DNA of 64,000 bases from the NCBI GenBank assembly GCA_964454905.1, contig CAYVTR010000001.1, positions 44,436 through 108,435 on the forward strand, read 5' to 3'. The notes beneath the pieces are model-generated. The model made no database searches. It worked only from the letters and a program-made list of their open reading frames with translations, and had not been told where the DNA came from. Positions 28,268-63,092 of the stretch are shown piece by piece. This stretch comes from an uncultured Woeseia sp. (GTDB taxonomy: Bacteria; Pseudomonadota; Gammaproteobacteria; Steroidobacterales; UBA11654). Numbering within the stretch: position 1 is the stretch's first letter; each line of letters starts with the position of its first letter. The position numbers and the translations under genes were made by a program.

Positions 28268-28274
28268 GGACGAT

Positions 28275-29351: not shown

Positions 29352-29378
29352 ATTATTTATGTTATTAAAAAAGATTAT

Positions 29379-29400
29379 TTATTGATCAATTGATAAATAG
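29379..29400. promoter_or_regulatory. Palindromic operator, site B (20/22)
   Basis: TTATTGATCAATTGATAAATAG. Lies between the divergent LLM monooxygenase (start 29351) and the RidA-triple operon (start 29486). Confidence 0.7.
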
Positions 29401-29485
29401 TAGTATATCTGAATTGATTTAACAATTAAGTATCAGATTTAATCGAATACTATTGTTACAAATCAGTTAATATTCAAGGAGATTA

Positions 29486-30772: not shown

Positions 30773-30783
30773 CTTTTAAAATA

Positions 30784-31671: not shown

Positions 31672-31679
31672 AACAATCT

Positions 31680-46721: not shown

Positions 46722-47519
46722 ATGGATCGCAGAGCTTTATTATCGGGTAAATTTACAGAAGACACACTTAATCTGAGTAATTCAGGTCATAGTCTATATG
46801 CTTATGCAAAGTTATTGGGCTCAACAGATAATGCAATGGTTCACTTTAGTCTAGAGGGGACAATTTTCGCGCTATTACCTAATGGTGCCAAACCATTCAT
46901 AGGTTTTCAGGCCATACAGAAAGGCGTTTGGAAAAAACACGGTCAAAACTCATTTCAATTGAGATTATATGAAACTGGTTTTTTTCATGATCTAGACTCA
47001 AAAGAGCATATCGCGGTTTTTGAAAACCCCATTACCAATCAAACAAATCATCTGTCAGAGATCAGAGGCGGACCTTATGAAACTATAATTAAGCCAACAC
47101 AACATGATTGGGTAGTTTCAGGTGACGATGTTTGGATTCAGGAGCCCAATCCAAGAATAGGTTATTTTGGTTCAGCAGAAGCAAAAAATAAAAATAAACA
47201 AACTGCATTTGCTAACACTATTTTTAGAGGAAAGTTATCTCAGTTAAATGATGAATCATCCATAGCAGCATCAATGATGACTTACAATTATGTAAGTCCA
47301 TGGTATCCATTTTTTGAGATGGACAATGTTGAAGGAAAAATGTATTGGCAAGCTGTTGGAAATAAAACCCAATCTTGGTCTGATGTACCCACATCAATGC
47401 AAGAATTTTTAACAACAACCCAGAACAATTATTTTGAATCAACTAATCCATGGACTGAGAGAACGAGCACATTGAAGCATTTTAGACAATCTAATAAGCG
47501 GGATAAAATAAGACCATGA
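46722..47519 (+). CDS. DUF1838-like protein (paralog 2 of 3), with an RR motif but no hydrophobic signal core
   Basis: 265 aa. Shares YAYAKLLGSTDNAMVHF, GTIFA, KPFIGF, KGVWKK, FENPITN, SPWYPFFEM and YWQAVGNK blocks with 47516-48391. The N-terminus MDRRALLSGKFTED lacks an h-region. Confidence 0.6.
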   Translation: MDRRALLSGKFTEDTLNLSNSGHSLYAYAKLLGSTDNAMVHFSLEGTIFALLPNGAKPFIGFQAIQKGVWKKHGQNSFQLRLYETGFFHDLDSKEHIAVFENPITNQTNHLSEIRGGPYETIIKPTQHDWVVSGDDVWIQEPNPRIGYFGSAEAKNKNKQTAFANTIFRGKLSQLNDESSIAASMMTYNYVSPWYPFFEMDNVEGKMYWQAVGNKTQSWSDVPTSMQEFLTTTQNNYFESTNPWTERTSTLKHFRQSNKRDKIRP

Positions 47520-48391
47520 AAAAACAGATTAACAGGAGGCAAATGATTGGTGGCATGAGTGCTTTAGCGGTCTCGCCTCATTTAGTGTCTGGTCAAGGCC
47601 TTGATATCGTAGATCATAAGATTGATTTAAGTGATCCGGTTCAAAATGCACTAGCTTATGCCAAATTAGTGGGTACATCTGACAGAAGCATGATACACAT
47701 TTACTATAAAGGAACAATATTTGGAATGACTCCAGAGGAGGGCGTTAAGCCTATGATTGGCCACACCGGTGTTTTAAAGGGTGTTTGGAAACCATGGATT
47801 AACAATAGTTTTTACTACACGCTCTACGATGTAGGTTATTTTATGGATCTGAAAACAGGATTACCTGCAGAAGAATTCGAGAATCCTTTTACAGGTGAGA
47901 TTAATCGTCCAGTTAAGATTATTGGCGGCCCATTTGATCGAGTAATTAAACCAGAAGTACGACCATTTGAAAACAGGGGTGATGATCTTTGGTTAGATGA
48001 GCCTGCTTTTCTCAATTTTGTTAACAAGCTTGATCCAAAAATATGGAAGAAAGCTTCAACAGCAGAGAAACTCAGTTTTCTTTATGTTGAAACATATCAT
48101 GGAAAATTATCCGATTTAGCAAATCCTGATATCACAAGTGCACCCATGCAAATTACATCCACACACAATACCAGTTGGTATCCATTCTTTCTCATGGGAC
48201 AACGACCTGGAGGACACTATTGGCAAGCTGTAGGTAAAAAGATCCAGGATCTTGAAAGTGATGTCCCTATTGAATTGATTAATTATATTGAGAAAGAGCA
48301 ACCGGGGTATTTTGAGTCTGAAAAACCTTGGAAAAAAAGAAAAGGTACCTTTCAGGCCTATAAAGATGAGAGGGAGCCTATCCAAGGTTGA
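47516..48391 (+). CDS. DUF1838-like protein (paralog 3 of 3) with twin-arginine signal
   Basis: 291 aa. Tat signal NRRQMIGGMSALAVSPHLVSG. Same conserved blocks as paralog 2. ATGA overlap with the upstream gene. Confidence 0.6.
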   Translation: MKKQINRRQMIGGMSALAVSPHLVSGQGLDIVDHKIDLSDPVQNALAYAKLVGTSDRSMIHIYYKGTIFGMTPEEGVKPMIGHTGVLKGVWKPWINNSFYYTLYDVGYFMDLKTGLPAEEFENPFTGEINRPVKIIGGPFDRVIKPEVRPFENRGDDLWLDEPAFLNFVNKLDPKIWKKASTAEKLSFLYVETYHGKLSDLANPDITSAPMQITSTHNTSWYPFFLMGQRPGGHYWQAVGKKIQDLESDVPIELINYIEKEQPGYFESEKPWKKRKGTFQAYKDEREPIQG

Positions 48392-48399: not shown

Positions 48400-49890
48400 C
48401 TAGATCGTCGGCTTAATGTTTGCATTTAATCTGAATAAATTGGTTGGATCATATTTATTCTTGATTTCAACAAGTGTTTCATAATTACCAAGAAAATTGA
48501 GATTGACATCTTTTTGGCTTTCAGAGAATTCATCATTGATATAAAACCCATCCGTATATGGCGAGACTGTTTTCCAGTATCTTCTGGACCAAGCCATATG
48601 TGGTGCTGTATCGACCCCGACAGTCCAAAAGGAACCCGTGATCAAATTGTGTTCAGCATATCGACTAGGGAATGCTGTTGCATCTGAAGCGATGGTGTTG
48701 ATTTTTCCACCTGATTGCTGAAAGAAAGCCATACTTCCTCTTTCTGGATGAGCCTCAAGGTTTTCGACGAGGGCATCAATTAAGCCATCTGAAATATTGA
48801 TTGTATATCCGCCTTTTAGATACTGCGATGCTCCTCGCGGGTCATCATCATCGCCACTCTTTTGTAAATCACGATAGTCAATAATATCTATCTCATCATG
48901 AATCACCTTACCTGCTTTACGCAGAGGTGCGAAGGCCTTATCAGCATCTTTATGTGGCCCCGAGTAACAAACATCAAAGTACACTGTATTTCCATATCCC
49001 ATAGGTGGAGCAAAAACAACAGGATCTTGATACATATCCCATGAGGCTTCTAGAGAATGCTCCCCATGAAATCTTAATAATTGCTTAACATCTTTAAAAT
49101 CAAATGTGATTCTGCCTCCAATAACATCCTTATTCATCTCATGAAGTTTGAATTCAAATGTAGTAACTATTCCGAAATTGCCACCACCACCTCTGACGGC
49201 CCAAAAGAGGTCAGGGTTTTCGTTTTTGTCTGCATATCTTAACTCGCCATCTGCAGTGATGATTTCAATGCTTTTCATGTTATCTAATGTTAGTCCATAT
49301 TTTCTGCCCAATCTTCCAAAGCCACCCCCTGTAGCTAGACCGCCAACACCGGTGTGAGAAACAGTTCCAGCTGTTGTTCCCAGTCCATGAGGTATGGTCG
49401 CCGCATCCACTTCACCGAGCCATGACCCACCTTTTATAAAAAGTCTTTTATTTGCTTTGTCCAGTCTAGTCCCTCTGAAAGGGGAGAGGTCAATCATTAG
49501 ACCTTGGTCACATGTGCCTTTTCCAGAAACACTATGACCGCCGCATTTCACTGCCGTTAAAAGGCTAAATTCTCTTGCAAAATTTACAGCTTTTTGAATG
49601 TCAGTTTCATCAACACATTGAGCAATAAGGGCCGGTTTTTTATCGATGATTCTGTTTCTAACCAATCTAGCAACATCGTATCCATTATCATCTTGTAACA
49701 GCAGTGTGCCCTTAAGGCTGTTTCTAAGGTTTGTTATATCGGCCTTTTTAAGTATGAGATTATCACCATCGCCAGTAATCGCTAGTAATTCACTAGGTAT
49801 TAGATTTTCAGCTGAATATCCTCTCCATGAGGGGAACAGCATAGCTGAAACTGCCATGCTTGAATTAGTGATAAAATCTCTTCTTTTCAT
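48400..49890 (-). CDS. Tat-exported FAD-linked oxidase of the VAO/BBE (berberine-bridge-like) family, copy 1
   Basis: 496 aa. Tat signal MKRRDFITNSSMAVSAMLFPS. FAD_binding_4 blocks (VKCGGHSVSG, GTTAGTVSHTGVGGLATGGGFG, RGGGGNFGIVT). C-terminal BBE-type tail (YDPTNLFRLNANI). Confidence 0.85.
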   Translation of the reverse strand: MKRRDFITNSSMAVSAMLFPSWRGYSAENLIPSELLAITGDGDNLILKKADITNLRNSLKGTLLLQDDNGYDVARLVRNRIIDKKPALIAQCVDETDIQKAVNFAREFSLLTAVKCGGHSVSGKGTCDQGLMIDLSPFRGTRLDKANKRLFIKGGSWLGEVDAATIPHGLGTTAGTVSHTGVGGLATGGGFGRLGRKYGLTLDNMKSIEIITADGELRYADKNENPDLFWAVRGGGGNFGIVTTFEFKLHEMNKDVIGGRITFDFKDVKQLLRFHGEHSLEASWDMYQDPVVFAPPMGYGNTVYFDVCYSGPHKDADKAFAPLRKAGKVIHDEIDIIDYRDLQKSGDDDDPRGASQYLKGGYTINISDGLIDALVENLEAHPERGSMAFFQQSGGKINTIASDATAFPSRYAEHNLITGSFWTVGVDTAPHMAWSRRYWKTVSPYTDGFYINDEFSESQKDVNLNFLGNYETLVEIKNKYDPTNLFRLNANIKPTI

Positions 49891-49921
49891 AAATTTATAT
49901 CTTAATTAGATTCTATATTAC

Positions 49922-49943
49922 TTATTTATCAAATGATAAACAA
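49922..49943. promoter_or_regulatory. Palindromic operator, site E (20/22)
   Basis: TTATTTATCAAATGATAAACAA. Lies 32 bp upstream of the BBE-oxidase copy 1 start (49890, minus strand). Confidence 0.7.
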
Positions 49944-49968
49944 TAGAACTTTTTTATTTAAGATCATT

Positions 49969-50700
49969 TTAGTTTGATATAGTCCCTAAAGATTCGTCTA
50001 TTGCATTCAAAATACGGTTAGTGCAACTATCTTTTAGAATACAATTGACGGTCAATAAAGCTAAATCTTTTCTAGTAACTTTGCCTACAACATTTATATT
50101 GTCGCTTAAAAATGCTTTGTTTGTTGCTGGTGTATCATCATAAACGATAATGCCTGTTTTAATAATTGTGTAATTAAGGCCGCTATTAATTAGAGTATGC
50201 TCTGCTTCACCTTTAGCTATCAATATATCTCTCCACATACTGTGTTCAGGATCTGGACCAGCCCCAACTGATCCGATCAAAATAAAATGTTTTACACCAT
50301 TTATCTTTGACCACTTACTCAGATTAAGTTGTCCAATGGCATGTGGATTCTGACTTTCTCCGACTTTAGCAATTGCATTGATTACAACATCATAAGCGAC
50401 ATCAGTGAACACTTGTTGCATGTCTGTTTCTAGTAAAACGTTGCCTTTGAGGTATTTAATATTTTGGTCCTTTAACCTTCTGCGATTAGAGTCAGATCTA
50501 CTTAAAACGGTTATATCCCTGTAATCATCATGTAATGCTTTCACTATCTCAGAGCCGACTCGCCCTGTTCCACCAATAACTAAAATTTTTTCATTAGACT
50601 CTGCAAAGCCATTAGAGAAAAATAGAATGAAGATAAAGCTAAACTTTAAGGAGCGTTTAACTTTGTTTCCTAACCAAATAAAAAAACCACTATGAAACAT
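49969..50700 (-). CDS. NAD(P)H-binding atypical SDR (NmrA-like) protein with N-terminal hydrophobic signal or anchor
   Basis: 243 aa. LKFSFIFILFFSNGFA hydrophobic segment followed by ILVIGGTGRVGSEIVKAL. Confidence 0.7.
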   Translation of the reverse strand: MFHSGFFIWLGNKVKRSLKFSFIFILFFSNGFAESNEKILVIGGTGRVGSEIVKALHDDYRDITVLSRSDSNRRRLKDQNIKYLKGNVLLETDMQQVFTDVAYDVVINAIAKVGESQNPHAIGQLNLSKWSKINGVKHFILIGSVGAGPDPEHSMWRDILIAKGEAEHTLINSGLNYTIIKTGIIVYDDTPATNKAFLSDNINVVGKVTRKDLALLTVNCILKDSCTNRILNAIDESLGTISN

Positions 50701-50734
50701 ATTTTTAGTTTATTACTTTACAGTCTAGAGTATT

Positions 50735-50758
50735 TTATTAAAGATTAATCTTTTATAA
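50735..50758. promoter_or_regulatory. Second, different palindrome (TTATTAAAGATTAATCTTTTATAA; 14-bp perfect core AAAGATTAATCTTT)
   Basis: Lies 35 bp upstream of the NmrA-like gene start (50700, minus strand). It shares the TTATTA/TATAA flanks of the main motif but has a different core. Confidence 0.4.
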
Positions 50759-50778
50759 ATAATCTATAAGCTTATTGC

Positions 50779-50800
50779 TTATTAATCAAATGATAAATAG
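50779..50800. promoter_or_regulatory. Palindromic operator, site F (19/22)
   Basis: TTATTAATCAAATGATAAATAG. Lies 36 bp upstream of the MBL-fusion/FGE/cytochrome c operon start (50836). Confidence 0.7.
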
Positions 50801-50835
50801 TATAGAATTCAAGAAAATAATCTAAAGGGATACGA

Positions 50836-52653
50836 ATGAAACTTAAAGCCTTTCATATAGTTATAATTTTATGTTTTGTTGCAAAAAGCACTTTTATCCA
50901 CTCCACAGAACAGGGTAATAATGAAGCATTAGAGAACGCCATATCTGGTTTAGGTGGAACTTTGGCTTTGAGTCAACTGGAAGGCTATAAGATAGTGAGC
51001 GAAAGAGACGAGTACATTATGGGTCAAGGAGCTGAACCCGGAAAAGGCATGATGTTATTGGCTGCTCCTTCCACAATTGTTGCTCATAGACTTGATAACA
51101 AATCCATTAGGGTAGATTTAATCACCACTCTGGCGGCTAGAGAGGGAGGTTACTTAACTAGAGAAAGTAACATTTTACTGCTTGGAGATGCTGGGTACCT
51201 CAGTGAGGATGACGCTATGGGCATAGTGAAAGAAAGAGACAAAGTTCTTTCTCCTGATAAGGCAGCAGCAAATATAAAAACAGAACGACTTCTTAATCCA
51301 CATCTACTAATCAAAGAGGTTTTGAATGACCCTAGCTTGTTGTTAGATCAAAAAATTCAAACAAATTCTGAGCGAGGCTGGAGATATCATCAAGATGAAG
51401 TTATGCCCGTCACCATAGATCGTATTCGTCAAACAGGCTTAAGAACACTCATAGCGACTCAAGAGTGGGAGAATGAAGCGAGCAAGAAAGTTTTCTATCC
51501 AAAGATGATCAATAAAACAGTCATTAATCCTGAGTGGTTTAATGATTGGAAGAGTAATACCCAAATTGATGAAGAAAAGTTTGATCAATTCAGTTTAAGA
51601 GATAAAGTTTATCCCATCACTTTTTTCGTTAATAAAAAAACAGGCTTAATAGAAAAGTTAAGCACCATGGAGTGGGATGTTGTCTATGGCGATATTGAAA
51701 TTGAGGTAAAATTTGATGATTGGAACATGGACAATAAAATTCCTTTCCCTATGACGGTGAAAATGTCGCAAGGCGGCGCACCAAGATGGGAAATCAGGCG
51801 AAAAAGCATAGAACTCAATCCAGATTATTCGCCTGATTATTTTAGCCCTCCAAAGCAGCTAGATTATGTTCATGATGTGGGATCAGCTAAAAGAGGTTGG
51901 GAAGTAAGCCAAACAATGAGGATGTTTACCTTATCAGTTGCCTACAGACCTGAAATTAATGCATTAGAATTAGATGATGGAGTTCATTATCTTTCTGCTC
52001 TACCTATTGATGGGGTGTACACGATGGTTGTTGAGCAAGAGAATGGAGTAGTAGTAGTAGAGCCTGGGATGAATGACTTAAAGGGCGAAGAGATTATTAA
52101 ATGGATACAACAAAACATACCCGGTAAGCCCATCACACATATAATTCCTACACATCATCATAATGATCATGGTGCAGGCATTAGACCCTATGTCGCTGAA
52201 GGAGCAGCTCTCGTAGCACATGAGACAGCAGTAGATTTTTACCGTACTCAAATTAATCGACCAAAATCATCTGTGGTTATTGATGCGCTTGATAGGGAAT
52301 TTAAAAAAGGATCAGAAACGGTCATCGGTGTCACAAGTAATGATGCGTATACAATTGAAGATACCGATCGACCCGTTGTGATCTATCCTGTGTTGAATGG
52401 GCATGTGGAAGATATGGTTATTATCTTGGTGGGCAATAAAAATTTTCTATATGCAGGTGATCTATACGTTAGTGGTATTGCTAGGGATAAAAGATCAGGA
52501 ACCAAAAGAGGACCCAATGTTGTACCATATCATTCAGCCATATCATTGAATGAGACGATAATGAAATTTAACATTCCCAGAGGGCCTCTATTGGGTTCCC
52601 ATGATAAAGAAGCAGTCAGTTATCAAGATTTAATTGATTACATCACCGATTGA
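50836..52653 (+). CDS. Secreted two-part protein: unrecognised ~370-aa N-terminal domain plus C-terminal metallo-beta-lactamase fold
   Basis: 605 aa. Signal peptide (IVIILCFVAKSTFIHS). MBL motif IIPTHHHNDHGAG at about residue 438 with later His/Asp ligands. I recognise no family for the N-terminal part. Confidence 0.7.
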   Translation: MKLKAFHIVIILCFVAKSTFIHSTEQGNNEALENAISGLGGTLALSQLEGYKIVSERDEYIMGQGAEPGKGMMLLAAPSTIVAHRLDNKSIRVDLITTLAAREGGYLTRESNILLLGDAGYLSEDDAMGIVKERDKVLSPDKAAANIKTERLLNPHLLIKEVLNDPSLLLDQKIQTNSERGWRYHQDEVMPVTIDRIRQTGLRTLIATQEWENEASKKVFYPKMINKTVINPEWFNDWKSNTQIDEEKFDQFSLRDKVYPITFFVNKKTGLIEKLSTMEWDVVYGDIEIEVKFDDWNMDNKIPFPMTVKMSQGGAPRWEIRRKSIELNPDYSPDYFSPPKQLDYVHDVGSAKRGWEVSQTMRMFTLSVAYRPEINALELDDGVHYLSALPIDGVYTMVVEQENGVVVVEPGMNDLKGEEIIKWIQQNIPGKPITHIIPTHHHNDHGAGIRPYVAEGAALVAHETAVDFYRTQINRPKSSVVIDALDREFKKGSETVIGVTSNDAYTIEDTDRPVVIYPVLNGHVEDMVIILVGNKNFLYAGDLYVSGIARDKRSGTKRGPNVVPYHSAISLNETIMKFNIPRGPLLGSHDKEAVSYQDLIDYITD

Positions 52654-53651
52654 GAATTACATTGAGAAGGGTGTATCAGTTTTGTCAAATTACAGCGCCT
52701 CTGCTCTGTTTATCATTTATAGCTTTGAATATTAATTCCCATGAAATTAATGCATCACAATTGATCAAGGATTGTGAGCATTGCCCACAAATGATTATTA
52801 TAGAACCTGGTGAATTCATTATGGGCTCGTCATCAAGCGTTGAAGGATCTAGGGATGATGAGCGACCACAGCATCAAGTTCGCATAGAGTATTTTTTTGC
52901 TGCGGGACAGTATGAGGTCAAAAGAATTGAGTTTGAGCAATTTATACGAAGCACAGGATATGACATGTCAGGTGGTTGTTATGGAGCAACGGAAAATGGT
53001 ATTCAACTTGGAAAAAATTTAGATTGGAATGATCCTGGTTATCCTATTTCAGATGATCATCCAGTTGTATGTGTGAGCTGGAATGATGCCAAGGCATACA
53101 CAAGTTGGTTATCAAAAAAGACTGGTTACAGATATCGACTTTTTTCTGAATCTGAGTGGGAGTATGTAGCCAGAGCAGGAACAAACACCATTCGCTTCTG
53201 GGGAGACAGCGAAGAGGGGTGTGAATTTGCAAATGGTGCAGATCTTGATATTACACCAGAAGCATTTCTGGAAGAAATGCGAGCCAGACAAACAAAAATT
53301 GTGTTACCTGAAAACTGGAAAGTTGCAAACTGTCATGATGGTTTTATTACCTCAGCTTCTGTAGGTTCCTTCAAGCCCAATGCATTTGGTATTTACGATA
53401 TCTTAGGTAATGTTGCAGAGTGGGTAGAGGATTGTTATAACGATTCCTATATAAATGCCCCAAATGACGGCTCAGCAAGATTATACGGGGACTGTGATAG
53501 ACCTATTTTAAGAGGCGCTTCATATTACGACATGCCGATCTACTTGAGATCATCAAATCATTATGGTTTTCAATCAGATCAATCAAAAAATAAAGATACT
53601 CGTTACATCAATTTCGGTTTTAGAGTAATGCGAGAAGTGACAGAACATTAA
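52650..53651 (+). CDS. Formylglycine-generating-enzyme (SUMF1/EgtB/PvdO) family protein, predicted exported
   Basis: 333 aa with a TTG start overlapping the upstream stop. CEHCPQMIIIEPGEFIMGS, HPVVCVSWNDAKAYTSWLS, LFSESEWEYVARAG, GNVAEWVEDC and RGASYY blocks of the FGE fold. Confidence 0.85.
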   Translation: MRITLRRVYQFCQITAPLLCLSFIALNINSHEINASQLIKDCEHCPQMIIIEPGEFIMGSSSSVEGSRDDERPQHQVRIEYFFAAGQYEVKRIEFEQFIRSTGYDMSGGCYGATENGIQLGKNLDWNDPGYPISDDHPVVCVSWNDAKAYTSWLSKKTGYRYRLFSESEWEYVARAGTNTIRFWGDSEEGCEFANGADLDITPEAFLEEMRARQTKIVLPENWKVANCHDGFITSASVGSFKPNAFGIYDILGNVAEWVEDCYNDSYINAPNDGSARLYGDCDRPILRGASYYDMPIYLRSSNHYGFQSDQSKNKDTRYINFGFRVMREVTEH

Positions 53652-54277
53652 TGAGATCAATAACTGTTTTACTGAGCCTTGTATTTATTGTTATTTTCTC
53701 TAACGTGGTTTATGCCAATCCAAGTAATCTTCAATCTTTACCTTTATGCCAATCTTGTCATGGCGAATCACTTCAAGGGAATCAATCCCTCCAGGCGCCA
53801 TTATTATCAGGATTAAGTCAATGGTATTTATATCGTCAGATGAAAAATTATAGAGATGGTATTAGAGGTACCCATCCTCAGGATATTTTTGGTCAAAGCA
53901 TGCGACTAAGCATCATGAATCTGAATGATAGTGAGGTTCAAGCACTTGCAGAATATATTTCTAAAATCAGTGTTGATAAACAGCCAATAAGCATTCAAGG
54001 AGACATAGAGACAGGCAAATTTGTATTTGAACATTGTATTTCATGTCACGGTGAATTTGGAGAAGGCGATCAGACCATAGGTGCACCAAGATTAACAGGA
54101 CAAAGTGATTGGTATCTTTATGAGCAAATGATTAATTTTCAAAAAGACATAAGAGGTAACCATCAAGACGATCTATATGGAAAGCTAATGAAGGACATGG
54201 CATACATGTTTGATGAGCAAATGTTGAGAGATGTGGTGTCTTATATTTCAACCATTGATCAAGAAGACAATCAATAA
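53651..54277 (+). CDS. Diheme c-type cytochrome (c4-like), periplasmic
   Basis: 208 aa with a signal peptide. Two CxxCH motifs (CQSCHG, CISCHG), each followed by a repeat of the form AP.L.G.S.WYLY.QM.N...IRG. The start overlaps the upstream stop (TAATG). Confidence 0.9.
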   Translation: MRSITVLLSLVFIVIFSNVVYANPSNLQSLPLCQSCHGESLQGNQSLQAPLLSGLSQWYLYRQMKNYRDGIRGTHPQDIFGQSMRLSIMNLNDSEVQALAEYISKISVDKQPISIQGDIETGKFVFEHCISCHGEFGEGDQTIGAPRLTGQSDWYLYEQMINFQKDIRGNHQDDLYGKLMKDMAYMFDEQMLRDVVSYISTIDQEDNQ

Positions 54278-54281
54278 TCAG

Positions 54282-55763
54282 TTAAATAATTTCCTTAAAT
54301 TTTTCTTCAATAGTTTCCAAAAGTTCGGGAAACTCTTCTCTGAGGCATGCAATATTCATTTTTGAAAATGGTTTGTCAGTTTGGCTTTCTGTAGCATTTC
54401 TGGTTGCATCAATGATGATCCTGCTCCCTACGCCCTTTTCAGAGGAACTGGGATCTCCACTCAATGCATTAGCATTGTCAATTATTTCTGATGACCTCTG
54501 CGGCTGCCATCTTGACCCTAGTGCATGAAGCACCTGATTTAAGTTATGTATATCAACATCCTCATCAAGGAGAACGGTTATTTTTGCAATTTTCAAAGAT
54601 GTAGATATAGATCGACCTATATCAAAGGTTTTCTTAGTGCTAGTTGTTTTTATTTTTGCAAAACAAAAACCTGGAAATTCTAGTGGATAGTGTAAGCCAA
54701 TGAAATCATCAAACTCGTCACGATACTTTCTGTTCAGATTGGCTTCAATGGGTGCAGTTAAGCAACCTCGGGTAATACCTGTGAATTGATTTGGAACAAT
54801 AGGGTTATGTCTATGTGTGATGGTTTTAACATTCATCAAGAAGTTTTCCTTTTGCAGTTCACCGATGTATCCATACATCTCTCCAAATGGCCCTTCTTCT
54901 TCCATTTCATCAAGAGGTATTTCACCTTCTATGATCAATTCAGCATGAGCAGGCACAGATATAGCTGAGGTTTCACATTTAACAATTTCTATAGCTTGAC
55001 CCATGAGCCCGCCTGCTATAGCTAATTCATCTTCACCATATTTTGCTACTTTTGATCCACTCATGGAGAAAGTGATAGGGTCGGTACCTATTACAATTGC
55101 AACTTGAGCAGTGACTCTTCCTTGTGCTTTTAGTTGTTGAAGAAATTTCCAACCGTCTTGATTCACCTGAGGATTGATCCCAATTTTTTTTGAGCTTTTG
55201 ATTTGGCAACGATAAGTGCCCACATTTCTTCCCAGTTCATTATCCTCCAGAATCACGCTCCCAGTATTGATGTAACACCCATTATCTGCAGGGTTGGTTT
55301 GTAGGAATGGAAAATTGAAAAGATCCATGTTGTCTCCTTCGACAATATTTTCTTTGCACGGTGCCTTACTTGCATCAATGGTTACGGGTTTTATGATCGG
55401 CCATTTGCCATCTTGATCAATATGCTGCTCAATTTTCTCTATTGCCGACTGATAATTTTGTTCTGATGAAGACCCGTAAGGCATGATGCCAAGTGCTAGT
55501 GCCTCAAGATCCCATTTGCCGTATAAATTTCCAACGGATGATTGTTCAAATACATTGTCTCTGGAACGAATTTTGTCGAAAAATAAGACTGGTGCTTCAC
55601 GGACATTGTGTTTTTCAATGATTCGATACATTAAAGCAGTCGCTTCGTAGTTGTTTTGATTAATATCGTCAATATGGAGAATATGACCAAAATGCTCTAA
55701 GGCATCAAGGTATTGTCTTAATGATTGATAAGGGCCGAGATATTTATCCTTCATAAGGATCAA
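54282..55763 (-). CDS. UbiD-family (prFMN-dependent) decarboxylase
   Basis: 493 aa. UbiD blocks DLFNFPFLQTNPADNGCYINTG, NVGTYRCQ, DELAIAGGL, VPAHAELIIEGEI and EGPFGEMYGY. Confidence 0.85.
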   Translation of the reverse strand: MILMKDKYLGPYQSLRQYLDALEHFGHILHIDDINQNNYEATALMYRIIEKHNVREAPVLFFDKIRSRDNVFEQSSVGNLYGKWDLEALALGIMPYGSSSEQNYQSAIEKIEQHIDQDGKWPIIKPVTIDASKAPCKENIVEGDNMDLFNFPFLQTNPADNGCYINTGSVILEDNELGRNVGTYRCQIKSSKKIGINPQVNQDGWKFLQQLKAQGRVTAQVAIVIGTDPITFSMSGSKVAKYGEDELAIAGGLMGQAIEIVKCETSAISVPAHAELIIEGEIPLDEMEEEGPFGEMYGYIGELQKENFLMNVKTITHRHNPIVPNQFTGITRGCLTAPIEANLNRKYRDEFDDFIGLHYPLEFPGFCFAKIKTTSTKKTFDIGRSISTSLKIAKITVLLDEDVDIHNLNQVLHALGSRWQPQRSSEIIDNANALSGDPSSSEKGVGSRIIIDATRNATESQTDKPFSKMNIACLREEFPELLETIEEKFKEII

Positions 55764-55796
55764 AAAATAATTGTTTTTATTAAAAGAGTGATCATT

Positions 55797-56465
55797 TTAT
55801 AAGGGCTTCAACTCACCTAGGAATGCCATCAGAATAACCAAAACCCAAATAAGCAAGGCGGCTTTATTTAAAACTGCTTGCTCTTTCTTAATTGACTCTT
55901 CTCCTTGTGTTTTAGTTTCAGCGTCTTGCGCTAAGTGAATAGACTTTCGCATTCTCCCTACTATAGCTCTTATCCAGATGCCATTAACAAGAATTAGACC
56001 AAAGATTATAATTTTCCAAGACAGCCAGTCACTTTGTATAATTTGATTCGTAATAAGACAATAAATTCCTAAAGTAATTAATAAGCCTGACAGTATATAT
56101 CTTATAAGCAGATCTAATTTTCTTAGTAACTCTCCAAAGGCGGTTTCTTTTTTAAAATGAACCAGCCATATTAGTCCTAACCACACAAAGCTAAATAGCC
56201 ATATGACTGTTAAGGCTGTCCCTTTAATTTCTGAACCAAAGGTTGTTGCTAAGGTAAAGCCGATAGGTAGGAGTAGGACTAAGCTGGTTCTAGCAGACAT
56301 ATCAACAAGAAAACGCATCGATCTCACTCTCAGTCTTTCTTCAATAGTTAGTTCCTCTTTAGTGATGTAATTGCCTATAAAATAAACAGCAATGTCCCCT
56401 CCAATTGCATAAACAAAGAGAACAACATGAAAAAATGCCATTAGGTCATGAAAGTTAATAATCAT
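55797..56465 (-). CDS. Integral membrane protein, unknown family
   Basis: 222 aa with about six predicted TM helices. Sits between the UbiD and BBE-oxidase genes on the same strand. Confidence 0.55.
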   Translation of the reverse strand: MIINFHDLMAFFHVVLFVYAIGGDIAVYFIGNYITKEELTIEERLRVRSMRFLVDMSARTSLVLLLPIGFTLATTFGSEIKGTALTVIWLFSFVWLGLIWLVHFKKETAFGELLRKLDLLIRYILSGLLITLGIYCLITNQIIQSDWLSWKIIIFGLILVNGIWIRAIVGRMRKSIHLAQDAETKTQGEESIKKEQAVLNKAALLIWVLVILMAFLGELKPL

Positions 56466-56493
56466 AATGACAGTCTAGCGGAAATTTTTTGAT

Positions 56494-57969
56494 TCAAATA
56501 CTAGGTTTAATATTACCATTGAGCCTGAAAAGATTTCTCGGATCGTATTTATTCTTAATTTTCACCAGTCTTCCATAATTCTGACCGTAACTAGTGGCAA
56601 CAAATTGCTGATCTTCATCCATTAATTCATTGATATATATTCTATCAGCACAATACGGAGTTAGGGCTTTCCAGTAATCTCTTCCCCATTGTGTATAAGC
56701 CTCATTTTTTTCGTCATCAACCCAGTGTCCACCGACTTCAATGTCCCATTTAGCGTTTCTTCCAACCCAAGCTGTTTCATCTTCAGCAACTTCTGTAATT
56801 GCTCCTCCGAAGCGAACCACTCGCATGGTATCAAAACGACCTTCTTGGTAACCCCAACCTTCCATGAGTTCATCTGTTAACTTTGGATTGTATTCGTCAA
56901 TATGCCTGCCTTTTATATAATAATTTCTATGGTGGGCATTTCTTTTATCAGCAATTTGCTGATGATCACTGAAGTTTTTCTTTGATACGTCATCAGAAAT
57001 TGGTTTTCCAAAACTTCTAATCGTTTTAAGGGCCTTTTCTGCTTTATTTTCATCACCTAGATATAAGGCTCCTAGAAAAAAGTAACCTTCACCTTCAGCA
57101 ACATTCCACATGCCTGCATTAAGCATGATTTTCGAGTCCATGTCTTCAGAGTAATCGTAATAGAAATCCCAAAGTTCTTTTGCGTACTTAAGATCATAAA
57201 GATTAACGCCGACAATAATTTCTCCGTTTGGAAGAGGGCGAAGATTGTATTCAAATGAGGTCACGACACCAAAATTACCGCCGCCACCTCTGATTCCCCA
57301 GAAAAGATCTGGATTTTCATCTGCACTTGCTTTTCTCATAACACCGTCAGTCGTGATGATATCAACGCTTCTTAAGTTATCTATTGTGAGCCCATACATT
57401 CTCATTAGCGACCCTATACCTCCTCCGAGGGTTAAGCCGGCAACTCCAGTATGAGAAACAACTCCAGCAGGTACGACATACCCATACGGCAGTGTTTTTG
57501 AATCCAGATCATATAAGGTACAACCCGGTTCGACAGTAACTATTTTTCTTTGCAGGTCCACACCGGTTTTTCTCATTCTTGAAAGATCAATAATGATTCC
57601 TCCATCGCAGGTTGATTTGCCCGATATGCTATGACCTCCGCTACGAATTGCGGTGAGTATATTTTGTTCTCTTGAAAAATTAATTGCCTGTTGGATATCT
57701 GCAGCAGACTCACAAAAAGCTATGAGTGCAGGGCGTTTATCCCAAACCCCATTCCAAACCAATCTAGCTGTATCATAATCATAGTGTTCTTTTGTGATAA
57801 CACTGCCTTGAAAGCTAGCCATGAAGTCCAGTATATCGACTCTATCTAGAATTATTTCATTACCATTCAATGACAACGCCACTGTATCTTGGATTGCAGC
57901 ATTACTTATGGGCACGTAGGAGGCTAAAGAAATAATCCCTGCATTTTTAATAAATTCTCTTCTTTTCAT
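56494..57969 (-). CDS. Tat-exported FAD-linked oxidase of the VAO/BBE family, copy 2
   Basis: 491 aa. Tat signal MKRREFIKNAGIISLASYV. IRSGGHSISG, VSHTGVAGLTLGGGIG and RGGGGNFGVVT blocks, with tail YDPRNLFRLNGNI. Paralog of 48400-49890. Confidence 0.85.
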   Translation of the reverse strand: MKRREFIKNAGIISLASYVPISNAAIQDTVALSLNGNEIILDRVDILDFMASFQGSVITKEHYDYDTARLVWNGVWDKRPALIAFCESAADIQQAINFSREQNILTAIRSGGHSISGKSTCDGGIIIDLSRMRKTGVDLQRKIVTVEPGCTLYDLDSKTLPYGYVVPAGVVSHTGVAGLTLGGGIGSLMRMYGLTIDNLRSVDIITTDGVMRKASADENPDLFWGIRGGGGNFGVVTSFEYNLRPLPNGEIIVGVNLYDLKYAKELWDFYYDYSEDMDSKIMLNAGMWNVAEGEGYFFLGALYLGDENKAEKALKTIRSFGKPISDDVSKKNFSDHQQIADKRNAHHRNYYIKGRHIDEYNPKLTDELMEGWGYQEGRFDTMRVVRFGGAITEVAEDETAWVGRNAKWDIEVGGHWVDDEKNEAYTQWGRDYWKALTPYCADRIYINELMDEDQQFVATSYGQNYGRLVKIKNKYDPRNLFRLNGNIKPSI

Positions 57970-58078: not shown

Positions 58079-58100
58079 TTATTAATCAATTGATAAATAA
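58079..58100. promoter_or_regulatory. Palindromic operator, site G1 (21/22)
   Basis: TTATTAATCAATTGATAAATAA. Lies in the 267-bp divergent region between BBE-oxidase copy 2 (start 57969) and the TonB-dependent receptor (start 58237). Confidence 0.75.
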
Positions 58101-58124
58101 ACTTTGCACTTGTCAGCGGTTTAT

Positions 58125-58138
58125 TATATATATATATA
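58125..58138. repeat. (TA)7 dinucleotide tract between operators G1 and G2
   Basis: TATATATATATATA, read directly from the sequence. Confidence 0.9.
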
Positions 58139-58146
58139 GGATATAT

Positions 58147-58168
58147 TTATTTATCGATCGATAATTGA
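58147..58168. promoter_or_regulatory. Palindromic operator, site G2 (18/22; own 14-bp perfect palindrome TTATCGATCGATAA)
   Basis: TTATTTATCGATCGATAATTGA. Lies 69 bp upstream of the TonB-dependent receptor start, with its centre 68 bp from the G1 centre. Confidence 0.55.
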
Positions 58169-58236: not shown

Positions 58237-60906
58237 ATGAAATTAATGCATAAATTAACTGTGTTATCACTAACGATAGCTATGGTGTCATTTGCTTTAC
58301 CGTCTAGTCTTTATGCTCAAGATGGATTGGCGATTGAGGAAATAACAGTAACAGCCAGAAAAAAAGAAGAATCATTAGCCGATGCGCCTTACACCATAAC
58401 GGCTTTAACATCACAGCAAATAGAGTTAGCAGGTATTAAACAACTCTCCGATGTGGTCGCGTATACACCCGGCTTCTTCTATTCAGACAACAATGTTGGT
58501 AAGAATAGTCGGTCGCATAAGAGATTGATCTTTAGAGGCATGAATCCAAGAACCGATATACCAACCCGACAAGCTTCCACGATGTTTATCGATGGCGCTG
58601 CGAGTGTTGGTGCTGAGTTTGGAGGTATTGAAAACGTAGAACGTATTGAAGTACTGAAAGGTCCTCAGGGAGCTCATTTTGGGCGATCAACTTATACCGG
58701 CGCAATTAATATAGTCACCAAGGATCCAGGGGATGAATTCTCAGGAAGAATCAATCTTGAAGCCGGTGATCATGGAACTACAAGAGCTGGCATAATTTTA
58801 GACGGACCACTGGGTGATAATTTAGGTTATCGCTTAACAACCAGTACCTATGACATGGACGGTATGTATGATAATGCCAATGTTGCAGGGCAAAAACTAG
58901 GAGAACAATCAACAGATGATGTCTCTTTGACTTTAGTCTTTGAACCTAATGATGTTTTTAAACTTAAAGCTCGATTCCATTCATGGGAAGATAGCGACGG
59001 CCCTGATGCAGGTACTGCTTATGATTACAGAAGCGGTCATCACAATTGTAGCCCAGGAGGTCTAGTTGAAAGATGGGACCCTGTGATGACTCAAGCAGCA
59101 GCAGCTTGGGTTTTTAATCCTGCAACCAATGTAGCCCATACAACTATTTGTGGGAAGGTAGCAGTTCCAACAGCGGCTGAAATTGGTCAAGACACTGGAT
59201 CTGCTAGAGCACTACAATTGCTAGGAATGAGAATTGATGGCCATCTTTTCCCTATTGCTAATGGGGTAAGAGATGTTCCTGATTTTATGGTTCCAAACCA
59301 CTTCGGAATGGAAAGAGAGGCTGAAGAATTAAGTATTATCGTTGATGTTAATTTTGATAATGGCATGAATTTAAATATTATCACGGCCAAACATGAGAAC
59401 GCCTATAGTAGTCATAACGATGTGGACAGAAGAGTCACTGAAGGACTTTACCTTGAAGGAAAGGGCGGAGGAATGTTTGGTGGGTTTGGTGCTAATCACC
59501 CAGCCGATGCCTCTGATCTAAGAATGAACTCCATGGAAGATAGCTCAATAGAAGTCAGATTGAGTTCAAATCAAGATCAAAGATTTCGATGGATGTTTGG
59601 TTACAGTGATGTTGACATGGATTGGTTCACCCAAAATATTGGTTCTATGATCGTTTACTATCCATCTGATGGTATTGATAATGGTGCAAGAGTGGCTGCA
59701 GGACAAATGCCGGTTAGCTATAACCCTTATTGGCCATTCTATGGCGCTGGTTTAGCTGGAAGTAATGCTGGTGGAGCTTATGGCGATGTCACTTCGAACA
59801 ATAATGACTTCAAATGGGACACAGTGAACACGTCTTCATTCTACGCTTCCTTGGAGGCTGATTTTACAGATAAGTTAACAGTGAGTCTTGATCTTCGAAG
59901 ACAAGAAGACGATGTGACCTCGGGAGGCCTAAGTGCATGGACAGGCACAGCTCCTAAAGTTGTCGGTACTCCAACTAACGTCCAACAAGATGTCTTTAAA
60001 TCCACACTCCCAAGAGTCATCTTTGATTACAAACCCAATGAAGACAGAACGATTTATTTCAGTTATTCAGAAGGTACTTTACCTGGGTTATTTAATCCTG
60101 CACTAGCATCACTCAGTGCAAGTCAATTAGATCAAGTGAAGGCACAAACCGGTGGAGCAGGAGTTAAGATTGATGAGGAAACCTCTGAAAATATTGAATT
60201 TGGAATTAAGAGTAGCATCATGGATGGTCGAGGCTTCGTTGCAGTAGCGTTCTATCAAACTGACCTTACCAATGTGCACACACCTTTATTTGCAGTTTCA
60301 TATACTGGCGATGATGGCACACAACAAGTGATAAGTGGTAACACCACCTCTCAAGGCGGTAAAGCAGAACTTTCAGGTATAGAACTTGATGGTACTATTC
60401 TGCTTAATGATCTGTGGTCACTTGATTTTACTTACGCTAAGAATGACAGTGAAATTAAATCAGATTTCCAAAGTGCTGATACTTTTGATCTGATGGGTGA
60501 CAGGAATGCTGTTATAGGGAATGAGTTCTCAAGATATCCGAAGAACAGCGGAAGCATCTCTGCAAATTATGCAAAAGAAATCGATGCTGAAAGGACAAGG
60601 TTTGCAAGGATGGATTATCTGTATACAGGAAAAATGTATGCATCTAATGCAATGCTTGCACACACAGGCTCTGGTGCGAAGATCAATTTAAGAGTAGGCC
60701 AGGAAACTGATAACTATCGAATTGAAGCTTATTGCACAAATTGTTTCAATGATAATCAGCCTAAAGGTTTACAACAGTTGTATGATTTATCTGGCATCAC
60801 CGGCGGATTTGGTGATGGTGCGACAACTGCCACTGGACCTAGGATAGTGTCTATTGCCTTGGCTGATAAAAGAGTGATTGGAATTAGAGCATCTTATAAG
60901 TTCTAA
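58237..60906 (+). CDS. TonB-dependent outer-membrane receptor
   Basis: 889 aa with a signal peptide. Plug domain (EEITVTARKKEESLADAPYTITAL, IEVLKGPQGAHFGRSTYTGAINIVTK), a long beta-barrel and a terminal aromatic residue (ASYKF). Confidence 0.92.
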   Translation: MKLMHKLTVLSLTIAMVSFALPSSLYAQDGLAIEEITVTARKKEESLADAPYTITALTSQQIELAGIKQLSDVVAYTPGFFYSDNNVGKNSRSHKRLIFRGMNPRTDIPTRQASTMFIDGAASVGAEFGGIENVERIEVLKGPQGAHFGRSTYTGAINIVTKDPGDEFSGRINLEAGDHGTTRAGIILDGPLGDNLGYRLTTSTYDMDGMYDNANVAGQKLGEQSTDDVSLTLVFEPNDVFKLKARFHSWEDSDGPDAGTAYDYRSGHHNCSPGGLVERWDPVMTQAAAAWVFNPATNVAHTTICGKVAVPTAAEIGQDTGSARALQLLGMRIDGHLFPIANGVRDVPDFMVPNHFGMEREAEELSIIVDVNFDNGMNLNIITAKHENAYSSHNDVDRRVTEGLYLEGKGGGMFGGFGANHPADASDLRMNSMEDSSIEVRLSSNQDQRFRWMFGYSDVDMDWFTQNIGSMIVYYPSDGIDNGARVAAGQMPVSYNPYWPFYGAGLAGSNAGGAYGDVTSNNNDFKWDTVNTSSFYASLEADFTDKLTVSLDLRRQEDDVTSGGLSAWTGTAPKVVGTPTNVQQDVFKSTLPRVIFDYKPNEDRTIYFSYSEGTLPGLFNPALASLSASQLDQVKAQTGGAGVKIDEETSENIEFGIKSSIMDGRGFVAVAFYQTDLTNVHTPLFAVSYTGDDGTQQVISGNTTSQGGKAELSGIELDGTILLNDLWSLDFTYAKNDSEIKSDFQSADTFDLMGDRNAVIGNEFSRYPKNSGSISANYAKEIDAERTRFARMDYLYTGKMYASNAMLAHTGSGAKINLRVGQETDNYRIEAYCTNCFNDNQPKGLQQLYDLSGITGGFGDGATTATGPRIVSIALADKRVIGIRASYKF

Positions 60907-61766: not shown

Positions 61767-63092
61767 ATGAGTCAGTCATTTTTAAGTTTAAATTTTTTAC
61801 CTAAAGGTAGGTTCAGAGTTGATTTAGTTGAAGGGGTCACTAAAACTAATTTCTTTTCTATTTGTTATGGGGCCTTAACCACAATCGGTTTGTTAACCTT
61901 TATATCTTATGCAACCACTTACGTTTTGATAGAGAACCTTGACTATCAGCGAAATCAAATTGGTACGATTGTAGGTGATCTACAAGTAGTAGCAGAAATT
62001 GCTCTATTAATTATTTTTCTTCCTGTTGGTTTAATTGCCGATAAGATCGGAAGACGACAAGTCTATTCGTTTGGTATGTTTGCTATGGGCTTATCTTATT
62101 TTCTTTATCCTTTGGCCACAGGGATAGGTGAATTAACGATTTACCGAATCATCTATGCCATTGGGATGGGTGCAGCCACAGGCATGTTGGGCACGGTTAC
62201 TGCGGATTATCCACAAAACCACACGCGTGGGAAAATGATTGCAGTGACCGGGATTTTAAACGCCACCGGCGTTATTATTGTGTCTTTAGTGTTCGCACGT
62301 TTACCTGAGAACTTTGCACAGATGGGTTACGACCAAGTAACAGCAGGACAATATGCGATGTGGGTTGTGGCCGGCATGTGTTTAATAACCTCAGTAGTGG
62401 TTGCCTTTGGGTTACAAAAAGGAACACCAACAGAAGAACAAAAGAAAATACCATATATTCAGCAAATTAAGTCTGGTTTAGAGGAAGGCAAAAAACCAAG
62501 AATACTATTAGCTTATGCTTCAGCTTTTGTGGCTAGAAGTGATTTGGTTATTTTAGGCACGTTTCTTGTCCTCTGGGGTGTTGCAACGGGAACCGATATG
62601 GGCATGACTACCTCGGAGGCAACAAAAGCGGCAAGATTAGTGTTTGTAACATCCTCCATGTCAGCTCTTATTGCATCACCAATAATTGGTTATTTGATTG
62701 ATAAAGTTGACCGTATTCTCGCTGTCAGTGTTTGTATGGCTCTCGCCTCAGCCGGTTACCTTTCCATGTTTTTTATTGATAATGTTCTCGATCCAGGATC
62801 AAAACCGTTTTTTATTCTTCTCGGTGTTGGCCAGCAATGCGCTTTTTTTGCTGCAACAACATTATTAGGTCAAGAGGCCCCTAAGATGAAACGAGGGGCA
62901 ATTGTTGGGGTATTCAATCTTGCTGGAGCATTAGGTATTCTCTTTTCAACTGGAGTTGGAGGACGACTATTTGATGCTATTAACCCATCAGCACCATTTA
63001 TATTTATAGGTTTTTGTAATGTACTTGTGAGCTTATTTGCTTTGTATGTAAATAAAGTGTCGCCAACACCTAAAGAACCGATCGGAACTTAA
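61767..63092 (+). CDS. MFS transporter (paralog of 23555-24883)
   Basis: 441 aa. Shares long blocks with the other MFS: DKIGRRQVYSFG, YFLYPLA, TRGKMIAVTGILNA and PSAPFIFIGFCNV. Confidence 0.85.
   Translation: MSQSFLSLNFLPKGRFRVDLVEGVTKTNFFSICYGALTTIGLLTFISYATTYVLIENLDYQRNQIGTIVGDLQVVAEIALLIIFLPVGLIADKIGRRQVYSFGMFAMGLSYFLYPLATGIGELTIYRIIYAIGMGAATGMLGTVTADYPQNHTRGKMIAVTGILNATGVIIVSLVFARLPENFAQMGYDQVTAGQYAMWVVAGMCLITSVVVAFGLQKGTPTEEQKKIPYIQQIKSGLEEGKKPRILLAYASAFVARSDLVILGTFLVLWGVATGTDMGMTTSEATKAARLVFVTSSMSALIASPIIGYLIDKVDRILAVSVCMALASAGYLSMFFIDNVLDPGSKPFFILLGVGQQCAFFAATTLLGQEAPKMKRGAIVGVFNLAGALGILFSTGVGGRLFDAINPSAPFIFIGFCNVLVSLFALYVNKVSPTPKEPIGT

Follow-up and report, generated by a model that had tools for sequence, protein, structure and literature searches.

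Tat-signal EncM-like flavoproteins and a c4-type cytochrome gene coupled to a PvdO-like gene in a catabolic island of an uncultured Woeseia: oxygen as the more probable flavin acceptor

p-Cresol methylhydroxylase (PCMH, PchCF) is a periplasmic flavoprotein of the VAO superfamily that works together with a c-type cytochrome. It belongs to the 4-phenol-oxidising VAO branch, carries 8-alpha-O-tyrosyl FAD, and its monoheme cytochrome subunit is encoded adjacent to the flavoprotein and co-purifies with it. Within the BBE family, 6-HDNO of Arthrobacter (PDB 2BVF) is an O2-using catabolic oxidase with monocovalent His-linked FAD, and it shares its branch with EncM, the flavin-N5-oxide oxygenase of enterocin biosynthesis in Streptomyces maritimus (PDB 3W8W, 6FOQ). 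EncM is a cytoplasmic enzyme that acts on a polyketide substrate bound to an acyl carrier protein (ACP), and its gene lies in a type II polyketide synthase (PKS) cluster. A further arrangement is that of NicA2 and Pnao with CycN in Pseudomonas putida S16, in which flavoproteins exported through twin-arginine translocation (Tat) and a Sec-exported cytochrome c are encoded in one catabolic cluster, with cycN between nicA2 and pnao in a single operon (PMC12224317). In that superfamily, the flavin amine oxidases, a Tat signal with an operonic cytochrome gene marks dehydrogenases, whereas Tat proteins without an operonic cytochrome are mostly periplasmic oxidases (PMC12224317). Here, we compare these systems with a 64,000-nucleotide stretch of DNA from an uncultured Woeseia sp. 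(GenBank assembly GCA_964454905.1, contig CAYVTR010000001.1, positions 44,436 to 108,435), hereafter the window, which encodes two BBE-family flavoproteins, BBE1 and BBE2, and a diheme cytochrome c. An earlier note on this DNA had read the three proteins as a flavocytochrome-style periplasmic dehydrogenase system resembling PCMH.

Our analysis places BBE1 and BBE2 in the EncM/6-HDNO branch of the BBE family and not in the PCMH/VAO 4-phenol branch. The reading that we favour, with about even confidence, is that both are O2-dependent periplasmic oxidases or EncM-style oxygenases, while the cytochrome serves the PvdO-like protein encoded immediately before it, or a step that depends on that protein. 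A dedicated pairing of BBE flavoprotein and cytochrome is unlikely. BBE1 and BBE2 are new members of a known enzyme family, found in an uncharacterised but widespread marine island.

The two flavoproteins are 40% identical to each other over their full length. Both carry an N-terminal FAD_binding_4 domain (PF01565) above the gathering score and a C-terminal BBE domain (PF08031), which scores 35.1 bits in BBE1 and 47.7 bits in BBE2 against a cutoff of 20.6. The closest solved relative of BBE2 by sequence is EncM (E 2.7e-87). EncM is also the first Foldseek match (TM 0.84-0.91, ~35% identity) of the AlphaFold2 model of BBE2, which has a pLDDT of 89 and disordered residues 1-21. The next distinct protein by fold is 6-HDNO, which comes third among distinct proteins by sequence, behind 9p1o; it differs from the window proteins in being cytoplasmic, in its ~26% identity in the structural alignment and in its pathway context. 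Neither the 60 sequence matches that ranked best nor the 50 top-ranked fold matches included a PCMH or VAO entry.

The flavin site is consistent with this placement. Both proteins contain the GGHS block noted earlier (VKCGGHSVSG in BBE1, IRSGGHSISG in BBE2), and its His, which was proposed to hold the FAD, is invariant as H113 in an alignment of 42 sequences and aligns to His78 of EncM, the 8-alpha-histidyl FAD site of that enzyme (PMC7662398). It is most likely the 8-alpha-histidyl attachment point in BBE1 and BBE2 as well. The residues for a second, 6-S-cysteinyl linkage are replaced, with a Val at the Cys position (GV-V-SHTG) and a Leu at the position of the accompanying His. By these residues both proteins are assigned to the monocovalent subgroup, like EncM, which has the same FAD His and likewise no second Cys linkage, and like 6-HDNO.

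In addition to the flavin site, the N-termini of the two proteins are informative. They begin with MKRRDFI (BBE1) and MKRREFI (BBE2), after which both have a hydrophobic stretch and a site of the A-x-A type. M1, R3 and R4 are conserved at 90% or more in the 42-sequence alignment, a Tat-type N-terminus is present in 98 of the 107 full-length top homologs, and cytoplasmic relatives, EncM for example, lack the twin arginine. Run on 40-residue N-termini, the TIGR01409 profile gave 15.0 bits for BBE1 (cutoff 16.7) and no match for BBE2. The presence of the motif, the degree to which it is conserved and the lack of it in cytoplasmic relatives together make a strong case that BBE1 and BBE2 are Tat substrates, as had been proposed, and both flavoproteins are predicted to be periplasmic. 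BBE1 and BBE2 thus differ from EncM in bearing Tat signals and in lying within a catabolic island that has a TonB-dependent receptor and MFS carriers and no PKS genes; no PKS or ACP gene occurs anywhere in the window.

The oxygen pocket bears on the electron acceptor. In EncM, O2 is bound by V135, V136 and T139, with H138 and L144 adjacent (PMC7662398). The counterparts in BBE2 are V170, V171, T174, H173 and L179, so that BBE2 and EncM read identically as V-V-S-H-T...L, and BBE1 reads T-V-S-H-T...L within the motif GTVSHTGVGGL. All 42 aligned sequences share G169, V171, S172, T174 and L179, and G[VT]VSHTG is near-universal among the 107 full-length homologs. For the BBE family, a gatekeeper rule holds that Gly together with Val gives O2 access and an oxidase, whereas Ala or Leu/Ile blocks access and gives a dehydrogenase (PMC4898691). 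The titles of PDB entries fit this rule, with BBE G164A described as a dehydrogenase and Phl p 4 I153V as an oxidase. In BBE1 and BBE2 the gatekeeper positions hold Gly and Thr, which would put both enzymes on the O2-reactive side. The earlier note had proposed cytochrome c rather than O2 as the acceptor and had singled out the oxygen-gating residues for inspection; these proved to be of the O2-reactive type, Gly/Thr, in a pocket matching that of EncM.

The cytochrome itself is as first described, a signal-bearing diheme cytochrome c encoded between the two BBE genes. Its CxxCH motifs start at residues 33 and 129, and the heme ligands are C33/C36/H37 with M84 and C129/C132/H133 with M180; both heme motifs and Met180 are invariant among its homologs, and Met84 is conserved in at least 90% of them. 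The N-terminus is of the Sec type. The closest solved relative is cytochrome c4 (6q2u, E 1.7e-11), and, as in cytochrome c4 of Pseudomonas (PDB 6Q2U, 1ETP), the protein has two heme c domains of class I, both with CxxCH and a Met ligand. Unlike cytochrome c4, it is encoded inside a substrate-regulated catabolic operon and not at a respiratory locus. It is also the fastest-evolving protein of the cluster, with 54-61% identity at loci where BBE2 retains 73-86% and the PvdO-like protein 74-82% (L088, L092; L numbers denote the loci compared).

Gene order argues against a PCMH-like arrangement. Three operons surround the flavoproteins and the cytochrome (Table 1). Operon A, on the minus strand, runs from the gene of an NmrA-like Rossmann protein to BBE1. 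Operon B, on the plus strand and divergent from A, encodes a protein with a metallo-beta-lactamase (MBL) fold, the PvdO-like protein and, third, the cytochrome. Operon C, on the minus strand and convergent on the cytochrome gene, runs from BBE2 through the gene of a 222-residue membrane protein to a UbiD gene. The three open reading frames (ORFs) for BBE1, BBE2 and the cytochrome lie where the earlier note had placed them. Within operon B, the MBL and PvdO-like genes overlap by 4 nt, and the PvdO-like and cytochrome genes overlap by 1 nt in the sequence TAATG, in which the cytochrome ATG overlaps the stop codon of the PvdO-like gene. The cytochrome gene is therefore translationally coupled to the PvdO-like gene and not co-transcribed with either BBE gene; both of these lie on the opposite strand, 2.2 and 3.8 kb away. 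The analogy with PCMH does not extend beyond a periplasmic VAO-superfamily flavoprotein found together with a c-type cytochrome. The family branch differs, the flavin is predicted to be His-linked and not tyrosyl-linked, and a diheme c4-type cytochrome encoded in a separate operon, and not co-conserved, takes the place of an adjacent, co-transcribed monoheme subunit. NicA2 and Pnao with CycN also differ, as they belong to another flavoprotein superfamily, and the window's cytochrome gene is in a separate, oppositely oriented operon. By the Tat/cytochrome rule, most members of the BBE clade would count as Tat-only, and the window's genes are ambiguous, sharing a regulon and not an operon with the cytochrome.

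Comparison across genomes separates the cytochrome from the BBE genes. Within the window's lineage the whole cluster is syntenic, including the cytochrome at 95, 88, 61 and 54% identity. Outside it, our scan of genome contigs with the BBE alignment returned mostly relatives of 35-40% identity that lack Tat signals and lie in unrelated contexts, leaving about a dozen informative Tat-bearing loci. In all, 14 Tat-BBE loci outside the lineage have no credible cytochrome c gene within 6-10 kb of the BBE gene: L004, L005, L007, L008, L174, L176 and eight from the genome scan (L017, L019, L027, L052, L064, L067, L074, L078). These include a 79%-identical BBE2 ortholog in a Porticoccaceae metagenome-assembled genome (MAG; L008) and a Rhodospirillaceae MAG with three tandem BBE genes (L004). 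Near L064, L067 and L074, ORFs with CxxCH do occur in GC-rich DNA, but they lie in alternative frames, lack a signal peptide and were dismissed as spurious. What recurs with BBE genes in subsets of the 14 loci is homologs of the MBL-fold protein (MBL-600), PvdO-like proteins, UbiD with the 222-residue membrane protein, and DUF1838 proteins. Co-conservation, which the earlier note had named as one test of its model, is thus confined to the window's own lineage.

The neighbour that the cytochrome gene does keep is the PvdO-like gene. Cytochrome homologs of at least 51% identity directly follow a PvdO-like gene (the ten such loci of a metagenome scan, L094-L103, together with L088-L090 and L092-L093) wherever the contig reaches; the contig of L095 begins ~150 nt upstream of the cytochrome gene, which cuts off the gene before it. 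In the rearranged locus L099 (7006-8624), the PvdO-like/cytochrome pair is kept, and the MBL gene and BBE2 are gone from the neighbourhood. Homologs of at most 45% identity have neither a BBE nor a PvdO-like neighbour, and cytochrome oxidase genes are present at 15 of their 71 loci (L091 and 14 of L104-L173); in L091 the order is cytochrome, small ORF, COX2, COX1, COX3, COX4. These conservation patterns indicate that the cytochrome is a respiratory carrier of the c4 type, taken into the island a single time, beside the PvdO-like gene. It is a lineage-specific addition that probably serves the PvdO-like protein.

The PvdO-like protein carries a signal peptide, and its closest solved relative is PvdO (PDB 5HHA, E 1.3e-48), a periplasmic protein of the same fold that is required for dihydropyoverdine oxidation. 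It scores 218.6 bits against the NCBIfam PvdO model, under the 500-bit cutoff, and pvdM, pvdN, pvdP and other pyoverdine genes are all absent from the window; the protein is PvdO-like only. We know of no coupling of PvdO to a cytochrome c4 gene. A metagenomic protein (P0264) provides a natural fusion of a PvdO-like domain and a cytochrome c domain in one polypeptide. Formylglycine-generating enzyme (FGE) was rejected as an identity for the PvdO-like protein, as PvdO is a far better match and the protein has no Cys in the C-terminal region, where we take the catalytic Cys pair of FGE to lie, FGE itself not having been aligned.

The two BBE operons and the cytochrome operon do share an operator. 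The palindrome TTATCAATTGATAA, with at most two mismatches, occurs at 10 sites in the window against 1.5 expected, and none of 100 shuffled sequences reached 10. Nine of the ten sites are intergenic and head island operons (23542, 29383, 41147, 45708, 45749, 49926, 50783, 58083 and 58151). The palindrome is 14-22 bp long, and its extended 22-bp form, TTATTWATCAAWTGATAAATAA, is kept at the same three intergenic positions in orthologous loci whose cytochromes are 54-95% identical to that of the window. The 22-bp form also lies beside BBE, PvdO-like or UbiD-module genes in distant loci of 50-53% GC, namely L005 (7477, 9925), L174 (2602, 7694) and L176 (5356, 7994), and its presence in such distant genomes indicates an old, conserved regulon. 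Co-regulation of the three operons is well supported by these sites, and the proposal that all are under one operator holds in this respect. However, the predicted regulon spans at least 35 kb and at least six operator-bearing intergenic regions, so the shared operator does not single out the BBE genes as partners of the cytochrome. A TetR gene (25903-26559) encodes a candidate regulator; related loci instead have genes of the GntR, IclR or LysR type. A scan for promoters and terminators found fewer sites than in shuffled sequence, and two of the operator sites overlap -35-like hexamers.

Several observations weigh against our reading. At each of several divergence levels within the window's lineage the cytochrome gene shares a cluster with BBE1 and/or BBE2. 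No other CxxCH ORF occurs in the window, the distance from the cytochrome gene to the BBE genes is 2.2-3.8 kb, and in L099 it is divergently adjacent to BBE1. The same operator precedes the cytochrome operon and both BBE operons, which are probably co-induced. Where no cytochrome gene is adjacent to a Tat-BBE gene, cytochromes encoded at other loci could serve the enzyme, and the assignment of BBE1 and BBE2 to the O2-reactive side draws on a gatekeeper rule that was set up for Val versus Leu/Ile and does not cover Thr. FGE-fold proteins are often non-enzymatic and PvdO has no demonstrated cofactor or in vitro activity, so that gene order and one fusion protein are what connects the PvdO-like protein with the cytochrome. 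PvdO was purified in an inactive form with no detectable cofactor or in vitro activity, and its electron pathway is described as 'not yet clarified' (PMC6206403). Periplasmic Tat flavoproteins that use cytochrome c are, in addition, well documented in NicA2/Pnao with CycN and in PCMH (PMC12224317).

Most of these points would suit an alternative in which BBE1 and BBE2 are cytochrome-c-dependent dehydrogenases and the c4-type diheme cytochrome is their acceptor, passing substrate electrons on to the respiratory chain as in PCMH or NicA2-CycN. The Tat signals on the flavoproteins and the Sec signal on the cytochrome would bring the proteins together in the periplasm, their operator sites and synteny persist down to 54% cytochrome identity, no other cytochrome c is encoded in the 64 kb, L099 sets the cytochrome gene next to BBE1, and, judged by precedent, a cytochrome c that accompanies a Tat flavoprotein predicts a dehydrogenase (PMC12224317). 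We nevertheless consider this alternative unlikely. The cytochrome gene lies outside both BBE operons and is coupled to the PvdO-like gene, which is also its invariant neighbour across loci; 14 outside Tat-BBE loci, that of the 79% BBE2 ortholog among them, have no cytochrome c nearby; the EncM-type O2 pocket and the open gatekeeper residues are invariant; and no fusion of BBE and cytochrome was found among the 120 best BBE2 homologs. Of the flavocytochrome-style system first proposed, the periplasmic location, the common regulon and the uptake and import context stand, and the PCMH-style pairing does not, whether judged by family branch, flavin linkage, operon or co-conservation.

A second alternative is that the cytochrome has no dedicated partner and takes up electrons in the periplasm from several redox enzymes of the island, as a shared sink. 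Candidate donors would be the PvdO-like protein, either or both of the BBE enzymes and, in other variants of the locus, a Tat FAD_binding_2 flavoprotein or the Tat amine oxidase. Several redox proteins with Tat signals and a single cytochrome are encoded in the window, one operator runs across the island, and the operon headed by the PvdO-like/cytochrome pair in L099 includes the gene of a Tat-signal FAD_binding_2 protein. The tight and invariant coupling to the PvdO-like gene argues instead for a specific partner, and we regard a shared sink as improbable. It is very improbable that the cytochrome is an ordinary respiratory c4 inserted into the island by chance with no role in the pathway: its remote homologs do adjoin cytochrome c oxidase operons and it is the least conserved protein of the cluster, but it is translationally coupled within an operator-controlled operon, has kept its place after the PvdO-like gene through rearrangements, and has a counterpart in the PvdO-like/cytochrome c fusion.

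Table 1. Positions in the 64-kb window of the two flavoprotein genes, the cytochrome gene, their neighbours and the operator sites.
Feature	Position	Strand	Basis or remark
BBE1, predicted Tat-signal His-flavinylated BBE/EncM-like flavoprotein, 496 aa	48400..49890	-	Pfam FAD_binding_4 E 3.5e-23, BBE E 1.3e-08
BBE2, predicted Tat-signal His-flavinylated BBE/EncM-like flavoprotein, 491 aa	56494..57969	-	Pfam FAD_binding_4 E 1.4e-29, BBE E 1.6e-12
c4-type diheme cytochrome c, Sec signal, 208 aa	53651..54277	+	Pfam Cytochrom_C E 6.6e-20 in two segments
PvdO-like FGE-sulfatase-fold periplasmic protein, 333 aa	52650..53651	+	Pfam FGE-sulfatase E 1.9e-52
Signal-bearing protein with C-terminal metallo-beta-lactamase domain, 605 aa	50836..52653	+	Pfam Lactamase_B residues 392-545, E 4.8e-13
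NmrA/NAD_binding_10 Rossmann protein, signal-like N-terminus, upstream of BBE1	49969..50700	-	Pfam NAD_binding_10 E 4.7e-26
Membrane protein between BBE2 and UbiD, 222 aa	55797..56465	-	no Pfam/NCBIfam match
UbiD-family (prFMN-type) decarboxylase, last gene of BBE2 operon	54282..55763	-	Pfam UbiD E 2.5e-56
TonB-dependent receptor (TBDR)	58237..60906	+	Pfam Plug, TonB_dep_Rec_b-barrel; syntenic in L001, L092, L094, L098
Two DUF1838 genes (46722-47519, 47516-48391)	46722..48391	+	Pfam DUF1838 E 1.2e-12 and 7.7e-19
MFS transporter	61767..63092	+	Pfam MFS_1 E 4.3e-43; syntenic in L001
Operator palindrome upstream of BBE1	49926..49939	.	TTATCAAATGATAA, 1 mismatch; overlaps -35-like hexamer; kept in orthologous loci
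Operator palindrome, SDR/MBL divergent region	50783..50796	.	~40 nt upstream of MBL/PvdO-like/cytochrome operon
Two operator palindromes (58083-58096, 58151-58164), BBE2/TBDR divergent region	58083..58164	.	kept in orthologous loci

The surroundings of the three operons suggest how the O2-dependent enzymes of our favoured reading might be used. The GC content of the window is 33-40%. Its first 17 kb hold housekeeping genes (murB, ddl, ftsQA, lpxC, secA, sucCD, bamD, aspS), and the ~45 kb from there onward are most likely a repressor-controlled catabolic island in a marine gammaproteobacterium of low GC that is abundant and uncultured. The TonB-dependent receptor gene is divergent from BBE2, the two DUF1838 genes are convergent on BBE1, and Pfam matches bear out that the receptor and MFS carriers flank the region. 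In the pathway that we propose, the substrate would be taken up through the TonB-dependent receptor and processed in the periplasm by the exported set of BBE enzymes, ~600-residue MBL-fold hydrolase, PvdO-like protein and DUF1838 proteins. The products would then enter the cell through the MFS carriers and be passed to the UbiD decarboxylase and CoA-dependent enzymes. The BBE flavins would most likely be reoxidised by O2, through oxidase or EncM-style NAD(P)H-independent oxygenase chemistry, either of which would suit the periplasm because neither needs NAD(P)H. From the step that requires the PvdO-like protein, electrons would most plausibly pass through the cytochrome to a terminal oxidase. 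The substrate may be a phenolic or aromatic acid, to which the evidence points weakly. The nearest relatives of the UbiD protein are hydroxyarylic acid decarboxylases (VdcC, 224 bits, below the cutoff), genes for tannase, FAA hydrolase, GST, PEP-utilising and hydantoinase proteins are found at related loci, and the island contains an MTHFR gene.

Several of the neighbouring proteins recur with BBE genes elsewhere. The 605-residue protein has an intact HHHNDH metallo-beta-lactamase motif, and its N-terminal ~390 residues have no Pfam, NCBIfam or PDB sequence match. Its gene is the one in the window that most often recurs beside a BBE gene at the loci examined for this (L004, L005, L007, L008); MBL-600 homologs adjoin BBE homologs, often overlapping or adjacent, in L004, L005/6, L007 and L008. 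The UbiD protein scores 240.8 bits against NCBIfam TIGR00148 (cutoff 244.85) and 224 against VdcC (cutoff 650). Its gene is always preceded by that of a polytopic membrane protein of 215-223 residues, 52-57% identical between loci (window 54282-56465, L174 288-2539, L176 3119-5281), and no gene for UbiX, the prenylated FMN (prFMN) synthase, is present in the window. An analogy with bagremycin or ferroverdin biosynthesis was rejected on the NCBIfam scores (BagG/BagK 169 bits against 850, BagN 116 bits against 1000). The NmrA-like Rossmann protein keeps its hydrophobic N-terminus in L098 and L099. A conserved signal-like N-terminus is odd for an NAD(P)-binding Rossmann fold, as it would direct the protein to a compartment without a nicotinamide pool, and the protein may be membrane-anchored or bind something else.

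The window encodes three DUF1838 paralogs (24884-25891, 46722-47519 and 47516-48391), of which at least two have twin-arginine N-termini; the gene at 47516-48391, the second of the pair beside BBE1, has an RR signal, with the N-terminus NRRQMIGGMSALAV. DUF1838 genes are clustered with BBE homologs in L005, L099 and L176. To our knowledge, DUF1838 has no known function, and a literature search on it returned nothing relevant. Farther upstream, a flavin amine oxidase family protein (19522-20988) with the Tat-like N-terminus DRRTTLKTFAAASVASLL is encoded after an FG-GAP/ASPIC protein (17876-20988 for the two), with no adjacent cytochrome gene. Two 3-hydroxyisobutyrate-dehydrogenase-like proteins, a 428-residue triple RidA protein, an S15 peptidase, an Asp/Glu racemase and a luciferase-like monooxygenase are common to the window (26594-34078) and to the Rhodospirillaceae MAG (L004, 14389-21476), beside BBE genes in both, and this shared gene set indicates that the conserved island is larger than the BBE/cytochrome region. 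A 770-residue protein (38822-41134) consists of two fused CoA-transferase family III modules and has a 51% homolog near BBE, MBL and PvdO-like genes in L007.

Our literature search found nothing on Tat-exported EncM-like enzymes or on the BBE gene module of this island, and no member of the periplasmic EncM-like clade appears to have been characterised. The clade is large and common in ocean metagenomes, in which it forms clusters of tens to hundreds of members (Tara, JGI, ENA). Its proposed module would comprise BBE, PvdO-like, MBL-600, DUF1838, UbiD and the 222-residue membrane protein, with an operator conserved from 37%-GC to 53%-GC genomes. The model first proposed for this locus, if true, would extend the rule that a Tat flavoprotein with a cytochrome c is a dehydrogenase, familiar from PCMH and NicA2, to the BBE/EncM branch, which the evidence makes unlikely. 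The probable role of the island is to break down some constituent of marine dissolved organic matter. It is tempting to speculate, though we are more doubtful than confident here, that PvdO-family proteins are cytochrome-c-linked periplasmic oxidoreductases and that the nearly always Tat-exported EncM-like clade consists of NAD(P)H-independent periplasmic oxygenases or oxidases, which would form the core of a widespread marine catabolic module. If so, the PvdO-like/c4 pair and the fusion protein would point to the class of electron acceptor used by PvdO. The pairing of a PvdO-like protein with a cytochrome c4 gives, in this way, a lead that can be put to the test on where PvdO-type proteins pass their electrons.

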